Shown here piece by piece: positions 5,503-21,261 of a stretch of 24,000 bases of DNA. A model generated the notes under the pieces. That model was not told where the DNA came from, did no database searches, and was given only the letters and a program-made list of their open reading frames with translations. The DNA is taken from the NCBI RefSeq assembly GCF_002286735.1, contig NZ_NRTA01000017.1:18656-42655 (forward strand), in the 5' to 3' direction. The position numbers and the translations under genes are program-made. How positions within the stretch are numbered: position 1 is the first letter of the stretch; the number at the start of each line of letters is the position of its first letter. Source of the DNA: Leptolyngbya sp. BC1307 (GTDB taxonomy: Bacteria; Cyanobacteriota; Cyanobacteriia; Phormidesmidales; Phormidesmidaceae).

Positions 5503-5828
5503 CAGGGCACCACCAGTTCGTAGGCTTGCTCGGTGCCGAGCGGGGTGATGACGACCGCCCAAATCCGGCGAGCTGAGCTAGATAGCGCCACCTCAATATC
5601 AAAGCGCCCCTGCCGGTCGAGAGACTGTGGCTGCTCAGCAATCGTGAGCTGACTATTTTCAGCCATCGTGACAAAACCCGTTTGCAGATCAACTTCCAAC
5701 CGAGCTGAGGCATTAGCACCTGTACTCAAAGTATCGCCGACTTCGGTGAGGCGATCGCCCCGCTGAGCCTGACGACGACTGCCGCCCTGAGGAATCAGCG
5801 CTACGGGGCCACTGAGTTCGGTGATCTT
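5502..5828 (-). CDS. FecR-domain-like ORF, start unresolved and possibly disrupted
   Basis: Track ORF 5502..5729 starts at TTG. My hand translation shows the frame stays open upstream to 5828: KITELSGPVALIPQGGSRRQAQRGDRLTEVGDTL-STGANASARLEVDLQTGFVTMAENSQLTI. This resembles the FecR pattern (GD.L.TG..S.A.L.L.DG..V.L..NS.L.I). No ATG/GTG/TTG occurs between 5828 and 5729. The stop TGA overlaps the kinase ATG (ATGA at 5499-5502 region). Confidence 0.5.
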   Translation of the reverse strand, partial: KITELSGPVALIPQGGSRRQAQRGDRLTEVGDTLSTGANASARLEVDLQTGFVTMAENSQLTIAEQPQSLDRQGRFDIEVALSSSARRIWAVVITPLGTEQAYELVVP

Positions 5829-6379: not shown

Positions 6380-7405
6380 TCAATAACGAATTCTCGGATC
6401 GACGTAGGCATTCAAAATGTCGATAGCAATGCTCACCAGCGCCACAATCGCCGCGAAAAACACCATCAGCCCCTGCACCACCGGATAGTCGCGCTGACTG
6501 ATGGCCTCATACAGACGATTCGCGAGCCCCGGCCAGGAAAAGGTCACCTCGGTGAGGACTGCCCCGCCCAGCAAAGAGGCAAATGTCAGGCCCAATATCG
6601 TAATCACCGGAATCATGGCGTTTTTTAGCGCGTGAGCGGTGATAATTCTAAATTCTGAAATGCCTCTGGCCCGCGCTGCCTCTACATAGTCGGCCTTTAG
6701 CGTCTGCCGCAGATTGACCCGCACAATCCGCTCAAAGACACCGCTGATCAATATGCCCAGCGTCAGGCTAGGCAGTGCCAGGTAGTAAACCGTCGTGCCA
6801 AACTGAGCCAAATCGCCATGCAGCAGGCTATCTAGTAAATACAGTCCGGTGGGGCCAGCAGGTGCGATCTGACTCAGCGGAAACCGCGTGCCGATAGGAA
6901 ACCAGCCGAGCTGCACAGAAAAAACCAGCTGCAAGATCATGCCAAACCAATACATCGGCACCGCGTAGGTAACAATGCCAAACACCCGCCCCCCCGCATC
7001 AAAAACGGTATTGGGCCGGGAAGCGGCAATCGACCCGACGGTCAGGCCGACCGCAGCGGCAATAATCATGCCGCACAAAGTCAGCTCCACCGTCGCCGGA
7101 AAGTGATCGCCAATAATCTGCCAGACGGTTTGCCCTTGACTAGCCAGAGAGCTGCCCAGGTTGAAGCTGAGCAAATCACCCAGGTAGTCGAGATACTGCT
7201 TGGGCAAAGGCTGATCGAGGCCCAGTTTGGTTCGCATGAGCGCTTTTGCCGCCTCAGGCGCACGGGAGCCGAGCAGCGCATCGACCGGATCGCCCGGCGT
7301 GGCCCGCATCAGCAAGAACACTACGGTGGTAATCGTCCAGATCATCAGCGGCGCTAACAGCAGGCGCGAGATGACGTAGAGCCGGAGAGAATTAGAGCGA
7401 GACAT
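6380..7405 (-). CDS. ABC transporter permease, peptide/nickel (DppB/OppB-like) family
   Basis: 341 aa. N-terminus RLYVISRLLLAPLMIWTITTVVFLLMRATPGDPVDALLG is typical of DppB/OppB-type permeases. Multiple TM segments. EAA-like loop YVEAARARGISEFRIITAHALKNA. Starts 3 nt after the binding-protein gene stop. Confidence 0.9.
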   Translation of the reverse strand: MSRSNSLRLYVISRLLLAPLMIWTITTVVFLLMRATPGDPVDALLGSRAPEAAKALMRTKLGLDQPLPKQYLDYLGDLLSFNLGSSLASQGQTVWQIIGDHFPATVELTLCGMIIAAAVGLTVGSIAASRPNTVFDAGGRVFGIVTYAVPMYWFGMILQLVFSVQLGWFPIGTRFPLSQIAPAGPTGLYLLDSLLHGDLAQFGTTVYYLALPSLTLGILISGVFERIVRVNLRQTLKADYVEAARARGISEFRIITAHALKNAMIPVITILGLTFASLLGGAVLTEVTFSWPGLANRLYEAISQRDYPVVQGLMVFFAAIVALVSIAIDILNAYVDPRIRY

Positions 7406-7408
7406 GGC

Positions 7409-9145
7409 TTACCCTTTTTCAATCTGCCAGAGAAGGAACTGCTGATTAGGCTCGATGGCGACATCGCTCACATCAGCGGTGGTAAAGATATAGTCTTTGG
7501 TCTGCCAGAGAGGAACGTAGGGCACGTCGTCAATCATGAGCTGCTGCAAGTCGCTGAAGACCTGATCGCGCTTGGCAGGGTCTTGCTCGGCGTTTTGCTG
7601 GGCGACGAGCTGGTTGGCTTCTTCGCTGTAGTAAAACGAGCCGTTGCTCTGCGTGGCTCCGACTTCGCACAGCGTTTCAGGGCTGCCCTGGTCGCAGGTG
7701 AGAAAGGGCTGCACGAAGTTTTCGGGGTCGAAGTAGTCGGGGTACCAGTTAGAGAGCACGCTGTTATAGGCACCTTTTTCGACGTTTTCAAACAGGGTCG
7801 CCGCTTCAGCGGTGCTGACGGTGATATTCACCAGGCCGGGTAACGCTTGTTCGACTGACTGCTTAATAGTGTTGGCGGCCACTTGCCGAGGGGTAGAGGC
7901 TGACGGATACCAGATTTCAAACGTGAGCGGATTGGCTTCGGTAATGCCAGCGGCGGTGAGGTACTGCTTGGCTTCGTCATAGTCGCCGTCGCCGTAGGCT
8001 TCTTCAAAGACGGGTTCGTAGACTTCAAAGCTTTTAGGAATCAGGCTGTAGAGCGGTTCGGCCTGGCCGTTGAAGGCGCGATCACTAATCAACTGCCGAT
8101 CCATCATCGCAGCTACCGCTTTGCGCACGTTGAGATCGTCGAAGGGGGCAATCTTCTGGTTGAGCGATAGGTAGTTGACCACCGTGCTGCCTGCTTCGAT
8201 GACCTGCCAGTCATTGCTATCAGCGTCGGATTCGATCTTGGCGATCTGGTCGGGGTCGAGCGTTTGATAGGCCACATCGAGCCCGCCGGAGGTAAAGGTA
8301 GTAAACAGGTTGGCCGCGCTGGTAAACACCTGAATATCAATACCGCCATTGGCCGGAGGCTCACCCCAGTAGTCTTCATTCACATCGAGCTTGATCACAT
8401 CGCTGCTAAAGGAGGCTAGCTTGTAAGGGCCAGAGCCAATGAAGTTGTCAGGCTTGAAGCTGCCCGCGCCGATCTCGTACTCTGTGGGGGAAACGGGCGT
8501 CATGCTCCAAAAGGTCAGCAGGGCTGGAAAGGCAGCAAACGGTTGCTTGAGCGTGATCACCAGTTCACCCGTTTCAGCAGCGGTAGCAGATTCGACCTTA
8601 TCGGCGATTAGAGAAGAGGGCCGACCGTTGTTTTCGATAATCCGCTGGATGGAAAAAGCCATCACCTCGGCATCGAAGGGGGTGCCGTCATGCAGGGTGA
8701 CATCGTCGCGTAGTGGGATGGTGTAGGTGAGGCCGTCTTCGCTGACGGTGGGCATTTCGGTGGCGAGCTGCGGTACCAGATCGGTGGTGCCAGGGGCGTA
8801 GGTATAGAGGCGATCGCCCAGGTTATAAAGCAAAATGCCGGGAAAAATTTCGTAGGCATCAGCTGGATCTAGCGTGCGCGCGCTGAGGGTGGTGCCGATT
8901 GAGACGCGATCGCCCGTACTCACAGCCCCTTCTGTCGCCGCCGAATCTACCGAAGCCGTATTGCCGCCGCCGCAGCTCACAGCTAGCACTAGCACCAGGC
9001 TAAACAGGCCCCCGTAGGCTCCGACTCGGCGTAATCTTTGACCGATCCTCTGGCTGATTTTTTGGCTAATTCTAAAGAACCATCGCCGCTGCAAACGAAG
9101 AAGCGTCACCATCATGGTCTGCCTGTGTAACCTACAACACGTCAT
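7409..9145 (-). CDS. ABC transporter substrate-binding protein, family 5 (peptide/nickel type), lipoprotein
   Basis: 578-aa ORF. Lipobox LAVSCGGG after a basic N-region. SBP_bac_5-like features throughout (LDPADAY, DGLTYTIPLRDDVTLHDGTPFDAE, GSGPYKL, WYPDYFDPENF). Start uncertain: ATG 9145, or the ATGATG at 9115/9112. Confidence 0.88.
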   Translation of the reverse strand: MTCCRLHRQTMMVTLLRLQRRWFFRISQKISQRIGQRLRRVGAYGGLFSLVLVLAVSCGGGNTASVDSAATEGAVSTGDRVSIGTTLSARTLDPADAYEIFPGILLYNLGDRLYTYAPGTTDLVPQLATEMPTVSEDGLTYTIPLRDDVTLHDGTPFDAEVMAFSIQRIIENNGRPSSLIADKVESATAAETGELVITLKQPFAAFPALLTFWSMTPVSPTEYEIGAGSFKPDNFIGSGPYKLASFSSDVIKLDVNEDYWGEPPANGGIDIQVFTSAANLFTTFTSGGLDVAYQTLDPDQIAKIESDADSNDWQVIEAGSTVVNYLSLNQKIAPFDDLNVRKAVAAMMDRQLISDRAFNGQAEPLYSLIPKSFEVYEPVFEEAYGDGDYDEAKQYLTAAGITEANPLTFEIWYPSASTPRQVAANTIKQSVEQALPGLVNITVSTAEAATLFENVEKGAYNSVLSNWYPDYFDPENFVQPFLTCDQGSPETLCEVGATQSNGSFYYSEEANQLVAQQNAEQDPAKRDQVFSDLQQLMIDDVPYVPLWQTKDYIFTTADVSDVAIEPNQQFLLWQIEKG

Positions 9146-9653: not shown

Positions 9654-9838
9654 GAGTTGTGTCTTACTTCTGGCAGTGAGCGGTCTGTTTTCAGGTATAC
9701 CTGCAAGTTGCGCTGGCTGACAAAGTTTTCCGCACAAAATCTGTCTAAATAACCTGGAGAGAGGTTGCGCTCTCAAACCAGCCCTGTAAGCTAGGTTAGG
9801 ATAGCGACCGTCTCCCGCTGTAAAGCACAACTGAAACC

Positions 9839-10030
9839 ATGATGATTTTGCCAGGCTCGCCCATTCGCATTACCAACGTTGACGATACTTACTTTGGCTT
9901 TGAAGGTCAGGTGCAGCGCGTCAGTGACGGCAAGATCGCCGTCCTGTTTGAAGGCGGCAACTGGGATAAGCTCGTTACTTTCAAACCTTCAGACTTAGAG
10001 ATTGTCAAGCCCATGCGAGGGAAGAAGTAA
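9839..10030 (+). CDS. ndhS: NAD(P)H-quinone oxidoreductase (NDH-1) subunit S
   Basis: 63 aa. [46 protein letters not shown] matches my memory of the cyanobacterial NdhS (Ssl0352/CRR31-like, SH3-like fold) sequence pattern and size. Confidence 0.75.
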
Positions 10031-10033
10031 GCG

Positions 10034-10675
10034 ATGCGTCTGCCGCTGCCGCAGTTTACTACCCGATCGCGTCAGGCCAGTCACATTGCTGAAGTGATTG
10101 AAACCTCAACCACCGAGTTTTTGGCGCAGTGCTTAGAGCCCGAAGATCTGAGCTTTCCGGCAATGCCGCCCTTTGGTAGCTGGGTGAAAGCTTATGACGA
10201 AGAAGCCGACAACCAGATTTACGGCGTGGTCTACCATGCGACGACCAGCCCGCTAGATTCGGTGCATCGGGCGCGGGCGCTGGGAATGTCGCTTGACGAG
10301 CTGCGCGAACAGCAGCCACAGATTTTTGCCATGCTCAAGACTGAGTTTCGGGTGGCAATTGTTGGCTTTGTGCCGCTGGCAACTCAACGCACCTATCAGC
10401 ATCTGCCGCCGCGTCCGCCGCAGGTTCACCAGGCTGTGCATTGCTGTGAGCCGGATGAAGTGATTTCTTTTACAGAAGAACTCGACTGGCTGCGCACACT
10501 CTTGCAGGTGAGCGGCGTGCCGACAGAGAGTTTGGCGGCGGCAGCGATTCGTGAGGTCTATGGCCTGCGCGATCTAGACCGCGATTGGCTAGTAAGGGCC
10601 GGGCGCACGGTGAGCGTTTTGCTAAAAGATGACTATGACCGCCTGCGGATGATTCTCTCGCAGATTCATCCCTAG
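10034..10675 (+). CDS. conserved hypothetical protein (no family recognised)
   Basis: 213-aa ORF with host-like codon usage. ATG lies 3 nt after the ndhS stop, and its own stop is 3 nt before the next gene. No TM segments or motifs that I can name. Confidence 0.6.
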   Translation: MRLPLPQFTTRSRQASHIAEVIETSTTEFLAQCLEPEDLSFPAMPPFGSWVKAYDEEADNQIYGVVYHATTSPLDSVHRARALGMSLDELREQQPQIFAMLKTEFRVAIVGFVPLATQRTYQHLPPRPPQVHQAVHCCEPDEVISFTEELDWLRTLLQVSGVPTESLAAAAIREVYGLRDLDRDWLVRAGRTVSVLLKDDYDRLRMILSQIHP

Positions 10676-10678
10676 CCC

Positions 10679-11866
10679 ATGCAAACCTACGACACTATCG
10701 TCATTGGCAATGGCCTCACTGGGGCCGCGCTCAGCTACGAACTCGCCAAAGCGGGTCAGGCAGTGCTCTTGCTAGACGATGGCAACCGTGACAGCGGCAC
10801 GTGCTACAGCTATGGCGGCATTGGCTACTGGGCCGGGACAACCGAGTTGACAACGACACTTTTGCGCGCAGGCATGGCTCGCCACCGCGAGCTATCAGAT
10901 GAGCTAGAGGCAGATACTCAGCTCCGAGAGATAGATCTGTTGCTAACGGTCGAAAAAGAAGCAGATATAGACTCTCTCATTAACGCTTACAAAGTCTTTG
11001 ATAGGCCGCCTCAGCTAATTTCTGTTGAAGCGGCGCAGGAGATAGAACCGCAGATTGACGCGGAGGCGATCGCTGCTGCCTTCACCATCCGCCATGCCCA
11101 TGTCGATCCGATGTCGTTGGTAGCTGCTTACAACCAGGCATTTCGCAGGCTGGGCGGTCATCACAATCTGTCTGCCGCGTCTGGATTAGTGAGAGTAGGC
11201 AACAAAGTCACAGGCGTAATGACTGAGGCTCAGGCGTACCCTGCTCAAACGGTTGTGGTTGCAGCTGGCGCGTACAGTCGAAATCTTTTGCGGGCGGTTG
11301 GTTTACAGGTGCCGCTGTTTTTCACGCATGCCGAGATTATAGAAACGCCGCCTTTGGATTTTGAGGTGCGATCGCTGATCATGCCCGCCGCCAACAACCG
11401 CTTTAAGCAAGAGGCCGAAGCCGCTGCTAGCGACCAGTGGCAACAGCCCAACAGCCAGGTGATTCCGCCCGTCTTAGAAGCAGGCGTCATCCAATTCGCC
11501 GATAAAACCGCTCGCATCGGGCAGATCAGCCGCTTTCACTCCGCCTACAGCCCGCCTGCTGACCCTACCGATAGCGAAACCGCTATTCGCCGGGCTATAG
11601 AACAACAGCTACCAATCCTCAAAGGCGTTCCTGGCACCTGGCGACACTGCCTGGTCACCTTCACCCAAGACGGCTTACCGCTACTCGGCCCTGTGCCTAC
11701 CGTCAGCGGGCTACATCTCTTCTCAGGTTTCACCAGTCCCTTTGCGCTTGTACCGCCTGTTGCTCAGCGCTACGCCCAATACTTGACAGGGCACCTGCCA
11801 GACTCGCCAGACGGCCTGATAAAAGATATGCTGATTGACCGTTTCAGCGTTGAACGCGACCATTAG
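10679..11866 (+). CDS. FAD-dependent oxidoreductase (DAO/glycine-oxidase-like superfamily)
   Basis: 395 aa. N-terminal Rossmann dinucleotide motif YDTIVIGNGLTGAALSYELAKAGQAVLLLD (GxGxxG followed by an acidic residue). Length and layout fit DAO-family flavoenzymes. Confidence 0.8.
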   Translation: MQTYDTIVIGNGLTGAALSYELAKAGQAVLLLDDGNRDSGTCYSYGGIGYWAGTTELTTTLLRAGMARHRELSDELEADTQLREIDLLLTVEKEADIDSLINAYKVFDRPPQLISVEAAQEIEPQIDAEAIAAAFTIRHAHVDPMSLVAAYNQAFRRLGGHHNLSAASGLVRVGNKVTGVMTEAQAYPAQTVVVAAGAYSRNLLRAVGLQVPLFFTHAEIIETPPLDFEVRSLIMPAANNRFKQEAEAAASDQWQQPNSQVIPPVLEAGVIQFADKTARIGQISRFHSAYSPPADPTDSETAIRRAIEQQLPILKGVPGTWRHCLVTFTQDGLPLLGPVPTVSGLHLFSGFTSPFALVPPVAQRYAQYLTGHLPDSPDGLIKDMLIDRFSVERDH

Positions 11867-11909
11867 GCCCGTTCATCCTCAGTCTTTGATTGCTCTGTAA
11901 AGGATCGGC

Positions 11910-13451
11910 ATGGCCAAAGCCAAGAAAGTAGCCAAAGAAGAACCGTTAGAAAAGCAGCTATGGAAAGCGGCTGATACGCTGCGCAAGAATATTGACGCGG
12001 CTGAGTATAAGCATGTGGTGCTGGGCTTGATTTTCCTCAAGTACATCTCAGATGCTTTTGAAGAACTCTTCACCAAGCTGAAAGCCGGTGAGGGTGAGTA
12101 TGCCGGGGCTGACCCGGAGGACAAGGACGAATACAAGGCAGAGAACATTTTCTTTGTGCCGCCAGAGGCGCGGTGGTCTTTTTTTCAGGCCAAGGCGAAA
12201 CAGCCCAAAATCGGTACGTTTGTCGATGCGGCGATGGATGCGATTGAAGCGGAGAATGCTTCGCTTAAGGGCGTGTTGCCGAAGGTGTTTGCAAGGCAGA
12301 ACCTTGACCCGACTAGCTTGGGTAGCTTGATTGACCTAGTGAGTAATATTGCGCTGGGCGATGCTAAGGCCCGCAGCGCGGATGTGCTGGGGCATGTGTT
12401 TGAGTATTTCTTAGGTGAGTTTGCCCTGGCTGAGGGCAAGCAGGGTGGGCAGTTCTATACGCCGCGCAGCATTGTCGAGCTGCTGGTGGCGATGCTGGAG
12501 CCGTACAAAGGGCGAGTTTTCGATCCTTGCTGTGGATCGGGTGGGATGTTTGTGCAATCAGATGAGTTTGTAAGAGAGCACCAGGGCCGGGTGAACGATA
12601 TCTCTATCTACGGTCAGGAGAGCAATCAGACGACGTGGCGGCTGGCGAAGATGAACCTAGCGATTCGCGGTATCGACAGTTCGCAGGTGAAGTGGAATAA
12701 CGAAGGCTCGTTTCTTAATGACGCGCACAAGGATGTGCGGGCGGATTTTATTATTGCTAATCCACCGTTTAACGTGAGCGACTGGAGCGGTGAGCTGCTG
12801 CGGGGAGATGGGCGCTGGCAGTATGGGGTGCCACCTGCGGGGAATGCGAACTTTGCTTGGTTGCAGCATTTTCTGTACCATCTGGCTCCTAGCGGACGGG
12901 CGGGAGTGGTGCTGGCAAAGGGGGCGCTGACCAGTAAGACTAGCGGGGAGGGCAAGATTCGCGAAGCGCTGATTGCTGATGGCAATGTGATGGACTGCGT
13001 TGTGAATTTGCCCGCGAAGCTGTTTTTGAATACGCAGATCCCGGCGGCGCTGTGGTTTATGAATCGGGCGCGGAATAATGGCCATCCGCGTAAGGGCGAG
13101 ATTTTGTTTATTGACGGGCGCAACCTGGGGCACCTGATCAATCGACGGACGCGCGAGCTATCAGATAAGGATATTCAGCAGATTGCACAGACATACCATG
13201 CTTGGCGCACCGGGGAAGCGGGCTATGAGGATGTGAAGGGCTTCTGTGCGTCGGTGCCCTTGGAGCGGGTGGCAGAGCTGGACTATGTGCTGACGCCGGG
13301 GCGCTATGTGGGGTTAGCCGAAGAAGAGGATGATTTTGATTTCACGGAGCGGTTTACGGCGCTGAAGGCGGAGTTTGAGGCGCAGTTACAGGAAGAGGCG
13401 GCGCTGAATGAGGCGATCTCGCTCAACCTATCGCGGGTAAAGCTGCCATGA
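11910..13451 (+). CDS. hsdM: Type I restriction-modification system, DNA methyltransferase subunit M (N6-adenine)
   Basis: 513 aa. HsdM N-terminal region ([32 protein letters not shown]). AdoMet motif [13 protein letters not shown]. Catalytic motif [10 protein letters not shown]. Also [14 protein letters not shown] and [14 protein letters not shown] lies 5 nt upstream of the ATG. Confidence 0.95.
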
Positions 13452-14827
13452 CGCTGATAGAGCAAATTCAGCAGGGCGAGGGCAAGACGCTGGAGCTAAA
13501 GGCTCAACTGCCCCGGCATGACCAGATCGCGAAGACGGTGGTGGCGTTTGCTAATACCAGCGGCGGCAAGCTGGTGATTGGGGTGGATGATGAGCGGCAG
13601 GTGGTGGGGCTGGCTGAGACGGATGTTTTGGATTTGCAGGATCGGGTGGCTTCGATTGTGTTTGACCGCTGCTCTCCAGCGATTTTGCCAGAGATTTATA
13701 GTGCGAATGTGCAGGGCCGTCTGGTGCTGGTGGTGGAAGTATTTCGGGGAAATTTGCTGCCCTATTACCTGAAGGCGGCGGGGAAAAACGAGGGGACGTA
13801 TTTGCGGATTGGGGCGACGAATCGGCGGGCGGATTTTGAGCACATTCTGGAGCTGGAGCGGCAGAAGCGCAGTCAGAGTTTTGATGAGGAGGTTTGCCGG
13901 GAGCAGGTGCTTTCTGAGTTGGATTTGACGCCGTTGATGGAGCGGTTTGCGGAGCGGGGGAAGCCGCTGACGGCGGAGAAGCTGAGGAATTTGAAGCTGG
14001 TGCAGATGGAGCAGGGGGAGCTATGGCCGACGCAGGGGCTGATGATTTTGCTGGGGCGCTATCCGCATGTGGTGATGAAGTGTGCGCGGTTTCGGGGGAC
14101 GGATATGAGTGTCTTTTTGGATCGCAAGGAGTATGAGGGCGATTTGTTTGGACAGCTAGCGCAGGCGGAGGGGTTCATTAAAAACCATATTCATCTGCGG
14201 GGTGAGATTAGTGGGTTGCAGCGGACGGATACGTATGAGTTGCCGGATGAGGCGCTGCGGGAGGCGTTGGTGAATGCGGTGGTGCATCGGGACTATACGA
14301 ATAAGGGCCGCGATATCAAGGTGGGGGTGTATGACGATGTGGTGAATGTGGTGTCGCCGGGGGGGTTGCCGAGTACGCTGACGGCGGAGACGCTGTTGGA
14401 TGGGCGTTCGGAGATTCGTAATCGGACGATTGCGCGAGTGTTTAAGGCGTTGGGGTACATCGAGCAGTGGGGCAGCGGGATTCAGCGGATTCGGGCGGCT
14501 TGTTTGGATTGGGGGCTGGCGGAGCCGAGGATTCGAGAGAAGGGGGATTTTGTGGATGTAGAGTTTTATCGGCCTGGGTTTGAGGTGATGGCTAAACCTA
14601 AAAGTATCGGAAAAGTATCGGGAAGTATCGGTAGAGTATCGGAAAATGAGCAGCGAATTTTGGCTTATCTGGAAACTCAGCGGTCAATCACATCCAAAAT
14701 CGTTGAGAACCTAGTTGGAGTTAAGGAAGCTAGAGCTAGACGGATATTGAAAGAAATGATTGATAAGGGCTTAGTTGAGAAGCGGGGTGGTGGACGCAAC
14801 ACCTACTACGTAGGAAGTGAAGGGTGA
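13448..14827 (+). CDS. COG2865-type protein: AlbA_2 (Schlafen-like) domain + HATPase_c_4 ('RecG C-terminal-like') domain + C-terminal winged HTH
   Basis: 459 aa. N-terminus [12 protein letters not shown]...[29 protein letters not shown] (AlbA_2 pattern). Middle [14 protein letters not shown]...VVSPGGLP...[28 protein letters not shown] (HATPase_c_4 pattern). C-terminus [48 protein letters not shown] (MarR-like wHTH). The ATG overlaps the hsdM stop (ATGA at 13448-13451). Confidence 0.85.
14603..14642. repeat. four copies of octamer AGTATCGG spaced 11/10/11 bp, inside the COG2865 gene linker
   Basis: Read directly: copies at 14603-14610, 14614-14621, 14624-14631 and 14635-14642. The octamer is read in two frames, giving [15 protein letters not shown]. 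Confidence 0.85.
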
Positions 14828-14831
14828 AAAG

Positions 14832-15965
14832 ATGAGTGAGTGGCTAGAATTTAAAATAGAAGACTTTGCTGAAGTTCTAAATTATAAACGTGTACCTCTG
14901 AGTACCAAAGATAGAACCGGAAGAAGTGGAAAATTTCCATATTACGGAGCATCAGGCATCGTTGATTACATAGACGACTACATCTTTGATGGAGAACATG
15001 TTCTAATTTCGGAAGATGGAGAGAACTTAAGAACAAGAAAGACTCCAATAGCCTTTAAGGCAGATGGGCAGTTCTGGGTGAATAATCATGCTCATATACT
15101 TAAGTTTCGTGAGGAACATCTTAGCAGCCTTATCGTTTATTATCTTCAAAATTTAGATTTGAACGAATTCATAAGCGGTGCTGTTCAGCCAAAGTTAAAC
15201 AAGACGAATCTCTTGGCAATACCAATTTTCCTTCCAAGAGAAAAGATAGAGCAGCAAGCGATCGCACAAGTTCTCAGCAGCCTAGACGACAAAATTGACC
15301 TACTGCACCGCCAGAACAAAACGCTTGAGGCGATCGCTAAGACACTGTTCCGTCAGTGGTTCATCGAAGAGGCTCAGGATGATTGGGAGGAGATGAATGT
15401 AGCTGATTTTGTCGAACTAAATAAATCCAGCATTGATAAAAGCTACCCCCACAAAACAATTGAGTATTTGGATACTGGCTCAATTCTTGAAGGTAAGATT
15501 GATGGTTTACAATCGCTTGAGACGAGCCATTCGCCCAGTAGGGCAAAGCGTTTGGTTCGACATAACGATGTGCTCATCTCTACTGTAAGACCCAATCAGA
15601 AGCACTATGGGGTAGTTAAAAACCCAGCAGATAACCTAGTCGTTTCTACTGGGTTCTGTGTCATAACTTGCACGAAAATAGATCCTCACTTCGTTTATCT
15701 TCTACTGACGAACGACGAAATGACTGAGTATCTGCACTCAATAGCTGAGGGTTCTACCTCAGCTTATCCTTCACTGAAGCCATCGGACATAGGGGCTATC
15801 GTCTTTCATCTTCCACCAAGCGATAAGCTAAAAGATTTTGCCAGTATTGCCCACGAGTCGTGGGAGAAGATAGAGAACAATTATGCTCAAATCCAAATCC
15901 TTGAAAAACTCCGCGATACGCTTCTTCCCAAACTCATGAGCGGCGAAGTGCGCGTAGACGTGTAA
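14832..15965 (+). CDS. hsdS: Type I restriction-modification system, specificity subunit S
   Basis: ORF 14817..15965. Two variable target-recognition halves separated by a central conserved helix (EQQAIAQVLSSLDDKIDLLHRQNKTLEAIAKTLFRQWFIE). C-terminal conserved helix (YAQIQILEKLRDTLLPKLMSGEVRV). ATG 14832 is 4 nt after the upstream stop; GTG 14817 is the alternative. Confidence 0.9.
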   Translation: MSEWLEFKIEDFAEVLNYKRVPLSTKDRTGRSGKFPYYGASGIVDYIDDYIFDGEHVLISEDGENLRTRKTPIAFKADGQFWVNNHAHILKFREEHLSSLIVYYLQNLDLNEFISGAVQPKLNKTNLLAIPIFLPREKIEQQAIAQVLSSLDDKIDLLHRQNKTLEAIAKTLFRQWFIEEAQDDWEEMNVADFVELNKSSIDKSYPHKTIEYLDTGSILEGKIDGLQSLETSHSPSRAKRLVRHNDVLISTVRPNQKHYGVVKNPADNLVVSTGFCVITCTKIDPHFVYLLLTNDEMTEYLHSIAEGSTSAYPSLKPSDIGAIVFHLPPSDKLKDFASIAHESWEKIENNYAQIQILEKLRDTLLPKLMSGEVRVDV

Positions 15966-15975
15966 CCATAGCCGA

Positions 15976-16410
15976 CTACTCAGGCACAAAAACCAAAATC
16001 GAGATCGCCCCACTAAGACGAGTAAAGTGCTTCGGATTTAGCGTTAATAGCCTATCCACATCTGATTTCAACGCAGCTTGGGCGATCAAAGCATCGAAAA
16101 TCCCCCCGCCTGGAAGGTTGAGATCTGACATTTGAGCGATCGCCGCCTGATAATCTGCTTGTTCTAACGAGACAGCCTTTAGGTATTGCAACTGATGCTC
16201 AATTAACAACCTGACATCTTGCGGTGACATGCGGGGTTTGCTAGGCATCCGAGTCAGCACAGAGTAAATTTCTGCCAAACTATGAGTGGAAAGATAGCCT
16301 TCAACTTGCCCTGCCTTAGCCGCTTGTAGCTGAGCGAAGCAAGGAACATGGCTAGGGTGCTGAGGCAGTGATGCCGCAACAATGACAGAAGTATCAAATA
16401 GAACCTTCAC
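15976..16410 (-). CDS. vapC: PIN-domain ribonuclease toxin (VapC family)
   Basis: 144 aa. PIN acidic set at the expected spacing: D6 (VLFDTSV), E47 (SLAEIY), D106 (GIFDALI), N125 (LTLNPKHF). The GTG start overlaps the upstream antitoxin stop (GTGA at 16407-16410). Confidence 0.85.
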   Translation of the reverse strand: MKVLFDTSVIVAASLPQHPSHVPCFAQLQAAKAGQVEGYLSTHSLAEIYSVLTRMPSKPRMSPQDVRLLIEHQLQYLKAVSLEQADYQAAIAQMSDLNLPGGGIFDALIAQAALKSDVDRLLTLNPKHFTRLSGAISILVFVPE

Positions 16411-16703
16411 AGCCCTAGTTCTTCCCAGCTTCTACCCCTACTTTGCTCAAGTAGCGCATCAAAATCAACCTGCTCAAGCGACTCCGTATCAAACACCAAA
16501 ATGCCATCCTGATCTCGAAGGCGAGACTCTACCGAATCAACTCTCATCGCAGTATCCGCAGATAGCGTAACAGATAGGCTAACTTGCGCTTTAAGTGCGT
16601 TTATTTTTTCCGTGACAGCCTGCAAAATAAACTGCTCCGGCGAGAGTCCTTGCCGCCTAGCAATTTGTTCAACTTCTTGTTGCAAAGCAGAGGATAGATC
16701 CAT
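16407..16703 (-). CDS. type II antitoxin (VapB-like, helical/RHH-like N-terminus) paired with VapC
   Basis: 98 aa, directly upstream of and overlapping the PIN gene. N-terminal LQQEVEQIARRQGLSPEQFILQAVTEKI resembles small DNA-binding antitoxin folds. The C-terminal half is acidic. The call rests on position and size rather than a firm motif. Confidence 0.65.
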   Translation of the reverse strand: MDLSSALQQEVEQIARRQGLSPEQFILQAVTEKINALKAQVSLSVTLSADTAMRVDSVESRLRDQDGILVFDTESLEQVDFDALLEQSRGRSWEELGL

Positions 16704-16762
16704 AGCGAGGCTAATAGCTGCGATACAGCCATTCTAGCTTGGATCAAACCCACGTAATTTAT

Positions 16763-16776
16763 GAGTACAAATACTC
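16763..16776. promoter_or_regulatory. inverted repeat GAGTA-N4-TACTC, candidate operator upstream of the antitoxin gene
   Basis: Read directly. Lies 60-73 bp upstream of the antitoxin ATG (16703), in the divergent vapB/hsdR intergenic region. The function is inferred only. Confidence 0.25.
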
Positions 16777-16850
16777 GTCTCAGCTCAGCTTAATTCAATC
16801 AATATTTTCAACTGGGTAAGCTAAGCAAGTATTGTCCTGTACTTCATACA

Positions 16851-16870
16851 ACGCTTCGTAAAATAAGCGT
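16851..16870. promoter_or_regulatory. inverted repeat ACGCTT-N8-AAGCGT just upstream of hsdR
   Basis: Read directly (ACGCTTCGTAAAATAAGCGT). Lies 25-44 bp upstream of the hsdR ATG (16895). It could be an operator or a 5'-UTR hairpin. Confidence 0.25.
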
Positions 16871-16894
16871 AACGCCCCCTTCAGCCCCAGCTCA

Positions 16895-19800
16895 ATGACT
16901 CACCAACTCAACGAATCCGCCATCGAAACCCTTGCCATTGAGCTACTCCAGCGCCAGGGCTACACCCACCTACACGCTCCCGGCCCTGATAGCCCCACCC
17001 CCGAACGCAGCCGCTACGAAGAAGTCATCCTCACTAACCGCCTAGAAGCCGCCCTGCACCGCATCAACCCCAACACCAGCCCCGACAAACTGCAAACCGC
17101 CCTCAAAGACATCCAGCGCATTTCATCACCCGACTTGCCCGCCAATAACGAAGCCTTCCACCGCCTGCTCACCGAAGGCGTCAACATCACTATTCAGCAA
17201 GACGGCGGCGAACGCGGCGACCTCGTATGGCCAATCGACTTCGCCCACCCCAACAATAACGATTTCGTCGTCGCCAGTCAGTTCACCGTCATCGAAAACA
17301 ACCACAACAAGCGCCCCGACCTAGTGCTATTCATCAACGGCCTGCCCCTGGTCGTGATCGAGCTAAAAAACGCTACCGACGAAAACGCCACCCTCAAAAC
17401 CGCCTACCAGCAGATCGAAACCTACAAAGCCACCATCCCCAGCCTGTTCACCCCCAACGCCTTTTCGATCATCTCCGACGGACTCGAAGCCAGAGCCGGT
17501 TCCCTCTCCGCCGGATTCAGCCGCTTCATGGCCTGGAAAACCGCCGACGGCAAAACCCAAGCCTCGCCCCTGGTCAGTCAGCTCGAAACGCTGATCGCAG
17601 GCATGTTAAACAAAGCCACCCTGCTAGACCTTGTGCGCCACTTCATCGTCTTTGAAAAAACCAAAAAAGAAGACCCCAGCACCAAAGTCATCAGCATCCA
17701 GACCGTCAAAAAGCTCGCCGCTTACCACCAGTACTACGCCGTCAACGCCGCCATCGAATCTACGCTGAGGGCCGCGAACATTGGAGCTGCTGATATCAGC
17801 GCTCCTTTTGAGGGCGCATTCAAAGCGGGGGAAAGCCCAGCCAGCTATGGACTGGGTGATGTGGCTCAGCAGCCGAAGGGCGATCGCAAAGCAGGCGTCG
17901 TCTGGCACACCCAAGGCTCCGGAAAATCCCTGTCAATGGTGTTCTACACCGGCAAAATCGTTCAAACCCTCAACAACCCAACCATCCTCGTTATCACCGA
18001 CCGCAACGACCTGGACGATCAGCTCTTTGACACCTTCGCCGCCTCAAAGCAGCTCCTACGCCAAGACCCGGTACAAGCAGGCGATCGCGACGAGCTAAAG
18101 AGTCTGCTAAAAGTCGCTTCTGGTGGCGTCGTTTTCTCCACCATTCAAAAATTCCAACCCGAAGACGGCAACATTTACGAACAGCTCTCAGAGCGCCGCA
18201 ACATCGTCGTTATCGCCGACGAAGCCCACCGCACCCAATACGGCTTCAGCGCCAAAACCATCGACGAAAAAGACGACAGTGGCACCCTGATCGGTAAAAA
18301 AGTCGTCTACGGCTTCGCCAAATACCTGCGCGACGCCCTGCCCAGCGCCACCTACCTCGGCTTCACCGGCACCCCCATCGAAAAAACCGACGCCAACACC
18401 CCGGCAGTGTTCGGCAACTATGTAGACATTTACGACATCGCCCAAGCCGTAGAAGACGGGGCCACCGTGCGCATCTTCTATGAAAGCCGCCTTGCCAAAA
18501 TCAGCCTCAGCGACGCAGGCAGAAAGCTGATTGCGCAGCTAGATGAAGACCTAGCCCAAGACGACCTAGCCGAAGCCCAGAAAGCCAAAGCCAATCGCAC
18601 CAAAGTAGAAGCCCTCATCGGCAATCCTCAACGCATCCAAACCATCGCGCAAGATATCGTCAGTCACTTTGAAGCACGGCAAGAAGTCTTTGCCGGTAAA
18701 GGCATGGTCGTGAGCATGTCGCGCCGCATCGCTGCCGAACTTTACGACGCTATTATCCAGATCCGCCCCGACTGGCACGACGACGACCCCGCTAAGGGCG
18801 CGATCAAGGTGGTGATGACTGCCAAATCGAGCGAAGGCTCTCAAATTGCCAAGCATCACACCACCAAAACACAGCGTAAGAATCTAGCCGACCGCATGAG
18901 AGACGACACCGACCCGCTGAAGCTGGTGATCGTGCGCGACATGTGGCTCACCGGCTTCGACGCGCCTAGTCTGCACAGCTTGTATATCGACAAGCCGATG
19001 AAAGGTCATAACCTGATGCAGGCGATCGCCCGCGTCAACCGCGTCTACAAAGACAAACCCGGTGGCCTCGTCGTAGACTATCTCGGCATCGCCTCAGACC
19101 TGAAAGAAGCCCTCTCCTTCTACTCCGACGCAGGCGGCAAAGGCGATCCTACTCTCGCCCAGGAGCAAGCCGTCGCTCTCATGCTCGAAAAGCTCGAAGT
19201 GGTTTCTGCGATGTACCACGGCTTCCCCTACGAGAACTACTTTGACGCCGACACCGCCCGTAAACTGTCGATGATTTTGGCCGCAGAAGAGCATATCTTG
19301 GGCTTAGAGGACGGTAAGAAGCGCTATATCAACGAGGTGACGGCATTGTCTCAGGCGTTTGCGATCGCCATCCCCCACGAGCAAGCCCTAGACGCCAAAG
19401 ATGAGGTCGGCTTCTTCCAAGCCATCAAAGCCCGCCTGACCAAATTCGACAGTCCCAGCGAAGGCCGCAGCAACGAAGAACTCGAAACCACCATCCGCCA
19501 AGTCATCGATCAGGCGCTGGTATCAGAGCAGGTGATCGATGTATTCGACGCCGCAGGCATCAAAAAGCCAGACATCTCCATCCTCTCCGATGAATTCCTG
19601 GCCGAACTCAAAGACTACGAGCATAAAAACATCGCCCTAGAAGTGATGAAAAAGCTGCTCAACGACGAGCTAAAAGCCCGCGCCAAGACGAACCTCGTAC
19701 AGAGCAAAACCCTGCTAGAGATGCTCGAAAACGCCCTCAAGCGCTACCAAAACAAAATCCTCACCGCCGCCGAAGTGATGGATGAGCTAATCCACATCAG

Positions 19801-20134
19801 TAAAGAGATCGTATCCTCCGATTCTGAAGCCTCAGCAATGGGCCTATCCGAGTACGAATACGCCTTTTACACCGCCGTCGCCAATAACGACAGCGCCCGC
19901 GAGCTGATGCAGCAAGACAAGCTGCGCGAACTCGCCGTCGTCCTCACCCAAAAGATTCGCGAGAACGCCACCATTGACTGGGCTATTAAGGAGAACATGC
20001 GGGCCAAGCTCAAAGTCATCGTCAAACGGCTGCTAAGAAAGTATGGCTACCCACCTGATATGCAGCTACTGGCCACCGAAACTGTACTCAAGCAGGCTGA
20101 GGTGATCGCCAGTGAGCTGACCGGCCAGCCGTAG
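16895..20134 (+). CDS. hsdR: Type I restriction-modification system, endonuclease/translocase subunit R
   Basis: 1079 aa. N-terminal PD-(D/E)xK nuclease motif (RPDLVLFINGLPLVVIELK). SF2 helicase motifs: Walker A HTQGSGKS, DEAH box VIADEAHRTQ, plus FTGTPI and LTGFDAP...QAIARVNR. The C-terminal helical domain (EYEYAFYTAV...IDWAIKENMRAKLKVIVKRLLRKYGYPPD) is typical of HsdR C-termini (DUF3387-like). Confidence 0.95.
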   Translation: MTHQLNESAIETLAIELLQRQGYTHLHAPGPDSPTPERSRYEEVILTNRLEAALHRINPNTSPDKLQTALKDIQRISSPDLPANNEAFHRLLTEGVNITIQQDGGERGDLVWPIDFAHPNNNDFVVASQFTVIENNHNKRPDLVLFINGLPLVVIELKNATDENATLKTAYQQIETYKATIPSLFTPNAFSIISDGLEARAGSLSAGFSRFMAWKTADGKTQASPLVSQLETLIAGMLNKATLLDLVRHFIVFEKTKKEDPSTKVISIQTVKKLAAYHQYYAVNAAIESTLRAANIGAADISAPFEGAFKAGESPASYGLGDVAQQPKGDRKAGVVWHTQGSGKSLSMVFYTGKIVQTLNNPTILVITDRNDLDDQLFDTFAASKQLLRQDPVQAGDRDELKSLLKVASGGVVFSTIQKFQPEDGNIYEQLSERRNIVVIADEAHRTQYGFSAKTIDEKDDSGTLIGKKVVYGFAKYLRDALPSATYLGFTGTPIEKTDANTPAVFGNYVDIYDIAQAVEDGATVRIFYESRLAKISLSDAGRKLIAQLDEDLAQDDLAEAQKAKANRTKVEALIGNPQRIQTIAQDIVSHFEARQEVFAGKGMVVSMSRRIAAELYDAIIQIRPDWHDDDPAKGAIKVVMTAKSSEGSQIAKHHTTKTQRKNLADRMRDDTDPLKLVIVRDMWLTGFDAPSLHSLYIDKPMKGHNLMQAIARVNRVYKDKPGGLVVDYLGIASDLKEALSFYSDAGGKGDPTLAQEQAVALMLEKLEVVSAMYHGFPYENYFDADTARKLSMILAAEEHILGLEDGKKRYINEVTALSQAFAIAIPHEQALDAKDEVGFFQAIKARLTKFDSPSEGRSNEELETTIRQVIDQALVSEQVIDVFDAAGIKKPDISILSDEFLAELKDYEHKNIALEVMKKLLNDELKARAKTNLVQSKTLLEMLENALKRYQNKILTAAEVMDELIHISKEIVSSDSEASAMGLSEYEYAFYTAVANNDSARELMQQDKLRELAVVLTQKIRENATIDWAIKENMRAKLKVIVKRLLRKYGYPPDMQLLATETVLKQAEVIASELTGQP

Positions 20135-20305
20135 AAGAACAAGCACCGCAGAAAAGCCAATACCCTTTAAAGTGACGTGCAAATCGGCATGGCTAGGCGG
20201 TACATTGAGTTCTAGCCGCCAGAATTACCTGTAAATCCTTGACGGTCAGCAGAAGGGACACTAGCTTTGCCTCTCGGTCAGCCTATCCTGTCAACATAAA
20301 TCTCT

Positions 20306-21082
20306 ATGGCATACGATCACCATCTCAAGCAAATTGAGGCGCTGGCCCTCAGCGATGAGAAAAAATCATATTTAGAAAACCGCTGGCTAGATCAGTATGC
20401 CTGGTTTGAGCGGCGGGCAAAAACCATGCAGATGTGGTATCGCCGTCTGCGGCTGATTGTTGTCATCGGAGGCGTATTGATTCCAAGTTTAATTGGCATC
20501 AAATTTTCTCCCGACATAGGCGCTCTATTCGGATTGAGAGATCAGCCGGTCGAGCAAGAACCTGCCTGGGTAAGTGTCGCGAGTGGCCTTACAGATGGCG
20601 TCATTTTTATTATCAGCTTGATAGTGGCGATCGCGGCTGCACTTGAAGAATTTTTTAACTTTGGAGAGAAGCACCGAAATTATCGCAGAGCCGCCGAAGC
20701 GATGAAAGGAGAATACTGGCAGTTTTTACTGCTCTCAGGTCACTACAGCAAGTATCAAGACGATGCGATGGACTATGCCCAATCGATCAAGGCTGCTTAC
20801 GGTACGTTTGTCCAGCGGATAGAACAAATTATCGAAGACGATGTTCGCAGCTTTATCGAGCTAGTCGATGAACAAATGCTCGAAGACAATCGCCAAACTC
20901 AAAAGATGTTGCAGGACAAAACAGATGGTTTGATGAGTGAACTCAAACATATCGGCGATCGCTTGGCAGCAATAGAGGGTGCGCCTGCTAAGCGATCGCC
21001 AACCAATCCTACAGCCGCTCCCTCAGAAACGCCCGATACCTCAGCCGCAATCATGGCTATTGATCTAACAGATCAGCCCTAG
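20306..21082 (+). CDS. DUF4231/SLATT-like two-transmembrane protein with coiled-coil/disordered C-terminal tail
   Basis: 258 aa. Pattern YLENRWLDQYAWFERRAKTMQMWYRRLRLIVVIGGVLIPSLIGI (TM1), then VIFIISLIVAIAAALEEFF (TM2), then NFGEKHRNYRRAAEAMKGEYWQF. This matches my memory of the DUF4231 family in the SLATT clan. The assignment is from pattern only. Confidence 0.6.
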   Translation: MAYDHHLKQIEALALSDEKKSYLENRWLDQYAWFERRAKTMQMWYRRLRLIVVIGGVLIPSLIGIKFSPDIGALFGLRDQPVEQEPAWVSVASGLTDGVIFIISLIVAIAAALEEFFNFGEKHRNYRRAAEAMKGEYWQFLLLSGHYSKYQDDAMDYAQSIKAAYGTFVQRIEQIIEDDVRSFIELVDEQMLEDNRQTQKMLQDKTDGLMSELKHIGDRLAAIEGAPAKRSPTNPTAAPSETPDTSAAIMAIDLTDQP

Positions 21083-21109
21083 AAGGAGATAGGCCCTAGA
21101 AAGAGATAG
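21076..21109. repeat. 17-bp tandem duplication (16/17 identical) spanning the stop codon of the SLATT-like gene
   Basis: Read directly: GCCCTAGAAGGAGATAG (21076-21092) and GCCCTAGAAAGAGATAG (21093-21109). The first copy contains the TAG stop at 21080-21082. Confidence 0.85.
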
Positions 21110-21261
21110 ATAGAGGACAGCGCTGCCGTTGAACGATTGGCTGCTTCACTGCATAAAGAATGTAGCGTTTGCAACGAAAAATTCAGATCTCAAGTAACTT
21201 TTGGCCTATACTGAGGCCCAACGGACGGCAGCACTTATAGAGTGTTTTGCAGCCGTTCTAT

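Follow-up and report, generated by a model that had tools for sequence, protein, structure and literature searches.

Within a 24,000-nucleotide (nt) stretch of Leptolyngbya sp. BC1307 DNA (contig NZ_NRTA01000017.1, positions 18,656–42,655; hereafter the window), a gene for a 459-amino-acid (aa) protein, here called X, lies between hsdM and hsdS of a type I restriction-modification (R-M) operon. X is a canonical Schlafen protein of the Schlatpase type with a C-terminal winged helix-turn-helix (wHTH) domain, and its catalytic sites are intact. The hsdM-hsdS junction in which it resides accepts cargo of many kinds, and the type I family of the window can do without X; furthermore, the wHTH tail and a short tandem repeat array together form a separable, fast-changing module that is set off from the core by a sharp recombination joint. 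With moderate confidence we propose that X is an RNA endonuclease, probably acting on tRNA, which is gated by its GHKL ATPase domain, that it travels as autonomous cargo, and that its wHTH binds a repeat array in cis. Papers of 2026 have already described this type of gene as well as its association with R-M, and X itself is a typical member; the value added here is the quantified status of X as autonomous cargo in the hsdM-hsdS site, and a family-wide array coupled to a swappable wHTH.

Domains, catalytic residues and class of X

An initial annotation, made from the letters of the window and a list of its open reading frames (ORFs), had assigned AlbA_2, HATPase_c_4 and wHTH elements to X. Pfam and Foldseek bear out this assignment, and all motifs quoted for it are present (LELK at aa 15–18, and further motifs at aa 33–48, 274–283, 323–332 and 339–348). 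SLFN_AlbA_2 (PF04326) covers aa 11–128 (8e-25, 88.1 bits against a cut-off of 25.3) and HATPase_c_4 (PF13749) aa 287–373 (7e-25, 87.3 bits against a cut-off of 26); a TrmB-type wHTH at aa 398–454 (6e-5) scores just under the Pfam gathering cut-off and is confirmed by the fold match. The AlphaFold2 model has a predicted local distance difference test score (pLDDT) of 80.8, with disordered segments at aa 250–261, 306–321 and 378–395, the last of which has pLDDT below 50. Foldseek relates the model to the uncharacterised DIP2311 structure 3lmm (5e-24) and also to 2kyy, the nuclease domain to pig SLFN11-N (7fex, 1.6e-4) and human SLFN14, the ATPase domain to histidine-kinase catalytic domains, and the tail to CadC/SmtB/MarR wHTH folds with probability 1.0. 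NCBIfam has no model for X, and PADLOC returns only partial matches to pAgo-associated models, of which PDLC02394 aligns with aa 24–307. An ABC-ATPase or anticodon-nuclease domain, i.e., homology to PrrC or RloC, was found in X in none of the Pfam, NCBIfam and PADLOC scans. NCBI lists a protein of Leptolyngbya sp. BC1307 with which the product shares 100% identity.

The acidic catalytic site is conserved. In an alignment of 47 homologues from many phyla (54–86% identity), E11, E16, K18, N36, G39, G40 and G45 of X are invariant, as are the GHKL residues E272, N276, H280–Y283, D296, G305 and E339–G344, and D48 is at least 90% conserved. E11, E16 and D48 correspond to E205, E210 and D248 of rat SLFN13, as mapped through chain 5yd0 with the same +13 offset at both anchors, and K18 completes the Ex4ExK motif; the HMMER alignment with SLFN14, which is shifted by five residues in the Ex4ExK region, was left unused in favour of the 5yd0 anchor. 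Across 68 genes, the nuclease Ex4ExK and GHKL residues are invariant regardless of genomic context. We infer that E272 is equivalent to E314 of RzAgo, the SLFN-pAgo protein of Runella zeae.

COG2865-type proteins have long been mis-annotated as 'RecG-like helicases', and the initial annotation held that they have no experimentally established role. This view is outdated: by 2026, prokaryotic Schlafens are established as tRNA-cleaving anti-phage effectors (PMC13056530, PMC13462974), and Schlatpase has been shown to depend on ATP-driven tetramerisation (bioRxiv 10.64898/2026.05.29.728809). Taboada et al. 2026 describe 5,930 prokaryotic Schlafens (pSlfn), of which 'HisKinase-HTH' fusions make up 19.2%, define the Ex4(E/D)xK motif, and demonstrate that a DUF262 fusion and an Ig-like fusion confer defence (PMC13056530). 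According to Weickert et al. 2026, the CRISPR-associated protein Cash cleaves the tRNA T-loop, and Schlafen clusters 1, 2 and 7 with ATPase and DNA-binding domains (their Fig. 6) are 'tightly associated' with BREX, R-M and type I CRISPR (PMC13462974). Kuzmenko et al. 2026 name the SLFN-PF13749 supradomain 'Schlatpase'; it is present in 60,692 of 103,533 Schlafen-domain proteins, more than 90% of the C-terminal tails are helix-turn-helix (HTH) domains, ATP binding tetramerises the Schlatpase of RzAgo and builds the active nuclease, and Poribacteria operons encode a Schlatpase that is either fused to a type I specificity subunit or standalone (bioRxiv 10.64898/2026.05.29.728809). A BREX survey refers to Schlafen-minimal histidine-kinase (HK)-wHTH proteins as 'backup suicidal effectors' (PMC12839542), and the link of the X architecture with R-M and BREX is thereby published (PMC13462974 Fig. 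6; PMC12839542); the idea of toxins embedded in R-M loci comes from PrrC and from Makarova et al. 2012 (PMC3506569). In the literature searched, Schlafen was joined with hsdM, hsdS or PrrC only in one general nuclease review.

X shares with the pSlfn HisKinase-HTH class, i.e., Schlatpase with a C-terminal HTH, the combination of PF04326, PF13749 and HTH, the Ex4ExK motif, the GHKL N-box and the location in a defence island, and the protein itself differs from that class in nothing. We infer RNase and ATPase activity, a role in defence, binding of the array by the wHTH and any functional link to the R-M enzyme. The conserved core, aa 1–376, would then be the enzyme, in which the GHKL ATPase would drive oligomerisation and thereby render the RNase active, and the C-terminal module of linker repeats and wHTH would be the regulatory or sensing part. 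X would act most likely as a suicide or back-up anti-phage effector of the abortive-infection type. Of the two roles that the initial annotation had offered, effector and regulator, effector is the better reading.

The hsdM-hsdS junction as a cargo site

The description of hsdM, X and hsdS as one coupled unit is correct in all its details. The X start codon (13448–13450) overlaps the hsdM stop TGA (13449–13451) within ATGA at 13448–13451, and the X stop TGA (14825–14827) is separated by the 4-nt spacer AAAG from an hsdS ATG at 14832; an alternative hsdS start, GTG, is present at 14817. The ATG is the likely hsdS start, because in homologous loci the HsdS reading frame opens with MSEW from an ATG overlapping the stop of X. 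The overlap and the 4-nt gap would place X in the translation unit of the methylase, with which it would be co-expressed.

A scan of one genome per species yielded more than 584 relatives of X, from which 80 loci at 49–85% identity (L001–L080) were kept; slot statistics are based on the 54 loci with adequate flanking DNA. HsdM is encoded directly upstream of X in 19 of the 54 (35%), and in 17 of these 19 HsdS also follows directly downstream (M-X-S order). Type I genes occur nearby in 6/54 and are missing altogether in 29/54. The M-X junction is an ATGA overlap in virtually all loci, and X-S junctions overlap in about half. With 19 of 54 relatives preceded by HsdM and near-universal ATGA coupling, the nesting goes far beyond chance, and the family is strongly enriched in this slot. 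Among the copies scored, the catalytic residues are intact in 22/22 M-X-S loci and in 24/24 loci that lack type I genes; since the latter keep every catalytic residue, X appears to be an add-on effector that is autonomous and has no obligate tie to the methylase.

The contexts of X are diverse. The window's own clade is mixed, containing both L001, an M-X-S locus in a metagenome-assembled genome (MAG) of the Cyclobacteriaceae (Bacteroidota), and L029 from a cyanobacterial MAG, in which X is solitary; L029 is 85% identical at the nucleotide level, adjoins aspS, and still carries, as a relic, the ATGA and about 16 nt from the 3' end of hsdM. Elsewhere, X is found between SngB and an SngA-like gene in a Shango-like locus with 4-nt overlaps (L019, 2692–7589), 4 nt before the gene of a methyltransferase-PLD-helicase-DUF3427 protein in a type IV-like locus (L004, 2899–8123), and, with 4-nt overlaps, as brxC-X-pglX in a BREX-1 system on a conjugative Azotobacter plasmid (L161, 1–6254). 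Other copies adjoin PDC-S01 or PDC-M62A, lie between DUF87 and hsdR, or adjoin housekeeping genes. Plasmid and phage collections contain X relatives below 40% identity only, with no close copy on a mobile element. Distant relatives (about 30% identity, with no wHTH match) on plasmids of the Pseudomonas syringae group and Klebsiella consistently adjoin a 'TrlF family AAA-like ATPase'; this pair may be a different, two-gene Schlafen system.

The converse survey started from HsdM and covered 80 metagenomic loci (L081–L160) whose HsdM is 75–89% identical to that of the window; 60 were evaluable. HsdS directly follows HsdM, i.e., the slot is empty, in 32/60. Other cargo is present in 25/60, comprising RhuM (5), KilA-N (4), ORF6N (3), Bro-N (3) and DUF1016/YhcG (2) proteins as well as Fic/SoFic, a HEPN-type nucleotidyltransferase (NTase) partner, 23S_rRNA_IVP and HTH proteins. 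Apparently shortened X copies occupy the slot in 2/60, and in 1/60 other genes follow with no HsdS seen. The assignment of the junction as a general cargo site, and of X as dispensable, rests on these empty slots and unrelated cargos among HsdM relatives. The two shortened copies are stretches of about 1 kb between hsdM and hsdS that match X and are split into two short ORFs (L134, 4459–5473; L140, 3668–4670), and are probably decayed X remnants.

In view of the 29 loci devoid of type I genes, the 24 intact copies in such loci, the solitary L029 and the varied cargo of the slot, our data do not support, in the form given, the initial proposal that the X product assembles with or senses the M2S complex. 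X would rather be a self-contained sensor-effector, and not an obligate subunit of an R-M complex. Several points nevertheless weigh against complete autonomy. One large neighbour-joining clade is nearly all M-X-S (20/26 leaves), and X and HsdM diverge in parallel, their pairwise identities being correlated (r=0.78); so stable a clade speaks for a genuine functional link in some lineages at least, which is also favoured by the reported Schlatpase-HsdS and Schlafen-R-M methyltransferase fusions. HisKinase-type fusions were among seven systems tested alone in E. coli, and none of them is among the two that protected (PMC13056530); a partner could hence be needed. For R-M-embedded or HisKinase-HTH-type members, activity is predicted from sequence.

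These same points, together with the translational nesting of X between hsdM and hsdS, the ATGA-coupled slot occupancy in 35% of relatives and the closeness of the window system to the type IC lineage, which is the host of PrrC, speak for a PrrC-like guardian, in which X would be held latent on the type I complex and its tRNase would be released by an anti-restriction protein (Ocr/ArdA/Stp-like) or when the enzyme stalls on DNA or cuts it. We regard this mechanism as rather unlikely. More than half of the close relatives retain all catalytic residues with no type I system at hand, and the nearest relative is solitary. Copies of X are also embedded in BREX, Shango-like and type IV-like loci, and closely related type I systems carry many unrelated cargo genes, or none, between hsdM and hsdS. 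The wHTH tail does not co-vary with the first target recognition domain (TRD1) of HsdS, and X and PrrC are not homologous. Within the clade of stable M-X-S order, a PrrC-like reading is conceivable; it is not required by the data.

Repeat arrays and the swappable wHTH tail

The disordered linker between the ATPase domain and the wHTH of X carries a tandem array (aa 385–399). A perfect 8-mer, AGTATCGG, starts at 14603, 14614, 14624 and 14635, i.e., with spacings of 11, 10 and 11 nt and in two alternating frames, and its 4 matches compare with 0.44 expected in the window. At the same place in the linker, L001 has a different, 10-nt unit (CGACCGATTA).

Arrays of this kind are a property of the family. 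At a Tandem Repeats Finder (TRF) score of at least 50, a detection threshold that sets a lower bound on copy number, the linker zone contains 5.0 arrays per kb, 64 times the density of 0.078 per kb found elsewhere. The periods in the linker zone are only 10, 11, 12 or 21 nt, compared with 7–27 nt in the background, and periods of 3, 6, 9, 15 and 18 nt are absent from it, unlike the background. An array is present in 71 of the 75 complete genes, in 61 within the linker, in 6 in the 5' untranslated region (UTR) and in 4 at the 3' end, and the median copy number is 4.0–4.4 in the 10-, 11- and 12-nt classes. The period is 10 or 11 nt in 40/71 arrays. Units of 10 nt are read in all three frames (ACCGATTACG x3 encodes TDYDRLRPIT), and 12-nt units yield tetrapeptide repeats (GGSI, KSSE, SERM) with up to 15 copies at 100% unit identity. 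Array RNA is unstructured, its folding being less stable than that of shuffled sequences. More distant relatives (25–39% identity) show the same feature: L161 (BREX), L163 (DUF87-X-hsdR) and L164 (Runella plasmid) have 11–12-nt arrays at the same gene position, and L162 has a palindromic 10-nt array upstream of a two-gene operon.

Six genes of one clade (L031, L034, L051, L059, L060 and L071) have no linker array, and a related unit (...GCCGAAGA...) is arrayed upstream of the X start codon instead; an in-frame stop shows that this upstream array is non-coding in L031, L034, L051 and L060. In L034, L051 and L060 it begins 6–10 nt after a TATAAT box and ends 25–51 nt short of the ATG. The arrays of L040 and L063 extend across the stop codon. 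The type of repeat unit co-varies with the type of tail, even at a separation of 1.2 kb. Pairs of genes that share a unit have a tail identity of 0.50, compared with 0.25 for other pairs, and the difference persists when the cores are less than 60% identical (0.39 vs 0.24). The six genes with 5'-UTR arrays share one tail type; L036 and L063, with cores that are equally close or closer, have different tails, and different units at the 3' end.

The tail itself is exchanged independently of the core. Between the window and L001, nucleotide identity is 85% from the hsdM ATG (11910) to 14575 (X codon ~376), and similarity resumes in the central region of hsdS (15249–15391), its C-terminal conserved region (15888–15961) and hsdR (16905–20121); the L001 counterparts of 11910–14575 and 16905–20121 are 6457–9128 and 10815–14025, respectively. 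The two cassettes differ only in the X tail, the HsdS target recognition domains (TRDs) and an insertion encoding a PIN-domain protein, and the GC content falls from 0.57 to 0.42–0.45 at the X breakpoint, 14575. A cassette shared at this level of nucleotide identity by a cyanobacterium and a Bacteroidota MAG indicates a recent inter-phylum transfer. Over 68 genes, mean pairwise identity is 57–67% in three core segments, 18% in the linker and 28% in the wHTH. Core identity is ~0.87 and tail identity 0.32 for the window and L001, and the corresponding values are 0.90 and 0.23 for L049 and L056. Even inside clusters of 90% protein identity, the linker and the tail are composed of patches from different unit families, and each wHTH type is preceded by its own repeat unit. 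An exchange or co-evolution of the tail and HsdS TRD1 as one unit was considered and rejected (Spearman rho -0.20); in an Acinetobacter cluster, cores are 98–99% and tails 83–94% identical, and TRD1 only 15–26%.

Loss of a repeat unit occurs in nature. Thiothrix unzii has two syntenic alleles with 4 and 3 copies of TGCCGGATAC, encoding 459 and 399 aa, respectively, which differ by one unit and one single-nucleotide polymorphism in 161 nt aligned around the array; the loss of the unit shifts the wHTH tail off frame, and the short allele is present in a complete genome and in an independent assembly. In L024, L041 and L080 an intact wHTH is out of frame with the core. For the window, a one-unit change would cut X to 391–425 aa with a stop 117–197 nt before the hsdS ATG, and a 21-nt change leaves X in frame.

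In the mechanism that we propose, the wHTH would bind the repeat array that its own gene contains or adjoins, either at the DNA level or in the transcript, and the nuclease would thereby be kept repressed or latent; gain or loss of one 10- or 11-nt unit would detach the wHTH by frameshift. Direct repeats spaced by 10–11 bp are typical binding sites of winged-helix proteins, among them PhoB and OmpR. A more specific form of the proposal, which we offer tentatively and consider possible at best, is that the four wHTHs of a tetramer bind a lineage-specific cis array of about four 10–12-nt repeats, which would keep the RNase repressed or latent. The four array sites would match the tetramer, and could be located in the 5' UTR or operator, hidden in the codons of the linker, or at the 3' end. 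The ligand would be either DNA, as an iteron-like operator, or the protein's own transcript, in which case X could sense phage-induced shut-off of transcription in a manner resembling type III toxin-antitoxin systems. Slippage by one unit would uncouple sensor from effector and, in M-X-S operons, would likewise uncouple the translation of hsdS.

Part of the evidence runs counter to array binding. The 12-nt arrays, of up to 15 copies, are compatible with a simple flexible linker that stays in frame, and they are not in phase with the helix; the window contains no further copies of AGTATCGG that could serve as a promoter operator or a remote operator; and physical linkage and common descent alone could produce the covariation of unit and tail. 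Unit-sharing pairs are 208 in direct and 0 in reverse-complement orientation, which does not distinguish DNA from RNA recognition. The repeats could, in an alternative that we judge improbable, be nothing but a fast-evolving, slippage-prone flexible linker, with regulation residing elsewhere, e.g., in the sensing of a phage molecule by the wHTH. Such a linker agrees with the predicted disorder, the unstructured array RNA, the mosaic linkers of variable length and the long, perfectly repeated tetrapeptide arrays; it does not readily account for the 40/71 arrays with units of 10 or 11 nt, in which every unit gained or lost shifts the frame and two or three frames are in use, for the missing 3-, 6-, 9-, 15- and 18-nt periods, for related units in non-coding arrays before the start codon or past the stop codon, or for a median copy number of about four in every period class.

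The wHTH has also been considered as controller of the operon. The initial annotation suggested this role, and no C-box-like palindrome is present upstream of hsdM that would sustain it; the wHTH does, however, appear to have a cognate repeat array within its gene or adjoining it. Some self-regulatory role of the wHTH is thus plausible, in a form that had not been foreseen. In contrast, a role of X mainly in regulating the R-M genes through its wHTH, like a C-protein and with the enzymatic domains secondary, appears very improbable. The C-terminal domain is indeed of the MarR/SmtB/TrmB type, the direct-repeat arrays of six relatives are placed like operators between the -10 box and the ribosome-binding site, and the window array is situated just upstream of hsdS. 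Upstream of hsdM, however, there is neither a palindrome (no inverted repeats or C-box in 11600–12000) nor a consensus promoter; invariant nuclease and ATPase residues would be needless in a pure regulator; X is dispensable for closely related type I systems and occurs in loci free of R-M genes; and known C-proteins are small XRE-type HTH proteins, unlike a 459-aa enzyme with a wHTH. In a scan of 9800–21300 for sigma-70 promoters and terminators, counts did not exceed shuffled expectation and no promoter-like site was found on the + strand at the M/X/S junctions; two short inverted repeats near the PIN/hsdR intergenic region were all that an operator search upstream of hsdR yielded. An Rfam scan of 11500–17000 at E<=1 gave zero matches.

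The type I locus and comparison with known systems

The features of the locus are collected in Table 1. HsdM is nearer to EcoR124II M (6e-43) than to EcoKI M (4e-15), and the solved relatives of HsdR are EcoR124I/II HsdR chains only; judged by these similarities, this horizontally acquired cassette is related to the EcoR124 (IC) lineage. The PIN/VapC ORF and the 98-aa ORF, which overlap by 4 nt, constitute a separate insertion between hsdS and hsdR and are absent from the otherwise 85%-identical L001 cassette. Ordinary metabolic genes flank the island.

Table 1 Features of the type I operon and its neighbourhood in the window
Feature	Position	Strand	Evidence
hsdM, type I methyltransferase subunit	11910..13451	+	Pfam N6_Mtase 6e-106, HsdM_N 8e-27; PADLOC MTase_I 1.6e-192
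X (Schlatpase-wHTH / pSlfn HisKinase-HTH class), 459 aa	13448..14827	+	Pfam, Foldseek, residue conservation
SLFN_AlbA_2 nuclease domain of X, aa 11-128	13478..13831	+	Pfam 8e-25
Ex4ExK motif E11/E16/K18 of X	13478-13501	+	
D48 of X	13589-13591	+	
N-box E272/N276 of X, just 5' of HATPase_c_4	14261-14275	+	
GHKL-type ATPase domain of X (HATPase_c_4), aa 287-373	14306..14566	+	Pfam 7e-25
Tandem array in X linker, 4.4 copies of 11-nt unit AAAAGTATCGG	14600..14646	+	TRF
C-terminal wHTH of X, aa 398-454	14639..14809	+	Pfam TrmB 6e-5; Foldseek
hsdS, specificity subunit	14832..15965	+	Pfam Methylase_S 3e-30; PADLOC Specificity_I 1e-112
PIN/VapC toxin	15976-16410	-	Pfam PIN_3 4e-11; TIGR00028 VapC family
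98-aa ORF upstream of PIN/VapC, candidate antitoxin	16407-16703	-	No family match
hsdR, restriction/translocase subunit	16895..20134	+	Pfam HSDR_N, SWI2_SNF2, T1RH-like_C; TIGR00348 9e-176
SLATT/DUF4231 effector-like protein with two transmembrane segments, island end	20306..21082	+	Pfam DUF4231 4e-24; NCBIfam SLATT_1 3e-25

The bias in third codon positions is opposite in different parts of the operon, with G3 0.46 and C3 0.19 in hsdM, G3 0.62 and C3 0.09 in the X core, and G3 0.18 and C3 0.53 in hsdR. These opposite biases recur in L001 and L029 but not in other members of the family; they may stem from a strand bias in the donor or from a past inversion. The G-ending codons of X were also considered as a family trait, e.g., one that avoids codons of the target tRNA, and this was rejected as the bias is confined to the lineage of the window, L001 and L029. 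The SLATT/DUF4231 protein is encoded directly after hsdR with none of the usual nucleotide-signalling partner, and on an Arcobacter plasmid a SLATT gene (L163, 1–152) lies two genes upstream of an X-like gene, in the order SLATT-DUF87-X-hsdR. Elsewhere in the window, at 5445–5487, a 12-nt tandem repeat with 3.6 copies of CTAACTGCCTAC lies near the 5' end of a CHASE2 hybrid histidine-kinase gene (- strand, 2683–5562).

The closest functional analogies to the proposed mechanism are with RNA-bound inactive RzAgo filaments and with the inhibition of ToxN by repeat RNA. RzAgo and X have the Schlatpase module in common, and RzAgo is inactive in nucleic-acid-bound filaments before activation; the RzAgo sensor is an Argonaute core with guide RNA, whereas X possesses just a wHTH, along with the repeat array that it encodes itself. 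In ToxIN-type systems, copies of the antitoxin unit bind the RNase in an inactive oligomer. The type III toxin-antitoxin systems ToxIN, CptIN and TenpIN resemble X loci in combining an endoribonuclease gene with an array of short tandem direct repeats, and in six X relatives (6/75 genes) the array has the corresponding position between promoter and RNase start codon. However, the known type III antitoxin units are roughly 35–45 nt long, compared with 10–12 nt in the X family, most X arrays are inside the coding sequence, and the Schlafen/AlbA_2 fold of X is unrelated to that of the ToxN/AbiQ-fold toxins. No terminator was noticed between array and X-type gene in the sequences inspected, although no terminator scan was run on those loci.

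Simple-sequence repeats of contingency loci are typically short and of high copy number, and slippage should be much rarer for X units of 10–11 nt in about four copies. X loci share with the contingency loci of phasevarion type I R-M systems (PMC7383803) coding tandem repeats with a unit that is not a multiple of three in a type I operon, and the short T. unzii allele is a natural one-unit deletion with a resulting frameshift; the affected gene is nonetheless the Schlafen cargo and not hsdM or hsdS, and many X arrays have in-frame 12-nt units. Like PrrC of EcoprrI and RloC, X is a predicted tRNA-targeting suicide nuclease inside an IC-like type I operon, and it is in keeping with the 'immunity-suicide coupling' concept put forward by Makarova et al. 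2012 (PMC3506569). PrrC, which combines an ABC-ATPase N-terminal domain with a nuclease domain of its own, is not homologous to X, its gene is located between hsdS and hsdR and not between hsdM and hsdS, and X often occurs apart from any R-M system. With respect to the published Schlafen clusters of R-M and BREX loci (PMC13462974, PMC12839542), the architecture of the X family is alike, and the M-X-S and brxC-X-pglX arrangements reproduce the association; those surveys report association only, and the slot, the coupling geometry, the frequency of empty and otherwise occupied slots and the solitary copies are quantified in the present work. The linker, 5'-UTR and 3'-end arrays, the swappable tail and the unit-slippage alleles are not described in the pSlfn and Schlatpase papers, and repeat arrays are mentioned neither in Schlafen papers nor elsewhere in the literature searched; the arrays of Schlatpase-wHTH genes are thus apparently unreported.

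Schlatpase-type proteins are the most abundant class of bacterial Schlafens. The locus in the window is an ordinary member of the class that adds little alone; the family-wide analysis provides concrete handles on regulation, namely a core and a tail that are separable, a tail-linked array that behaves as a nucleic-acid element, and natural alleles that have lost a unit. The hsdM-hsdS junction as a general docking site bears on how 'layered' immunity is assembled and spreads. If true, control by a cis array would constitute a new, self-contained logic for the commonest bacterial Schlafens, and would explain why Schlatpase-wHTH genes drop into any defence operon.

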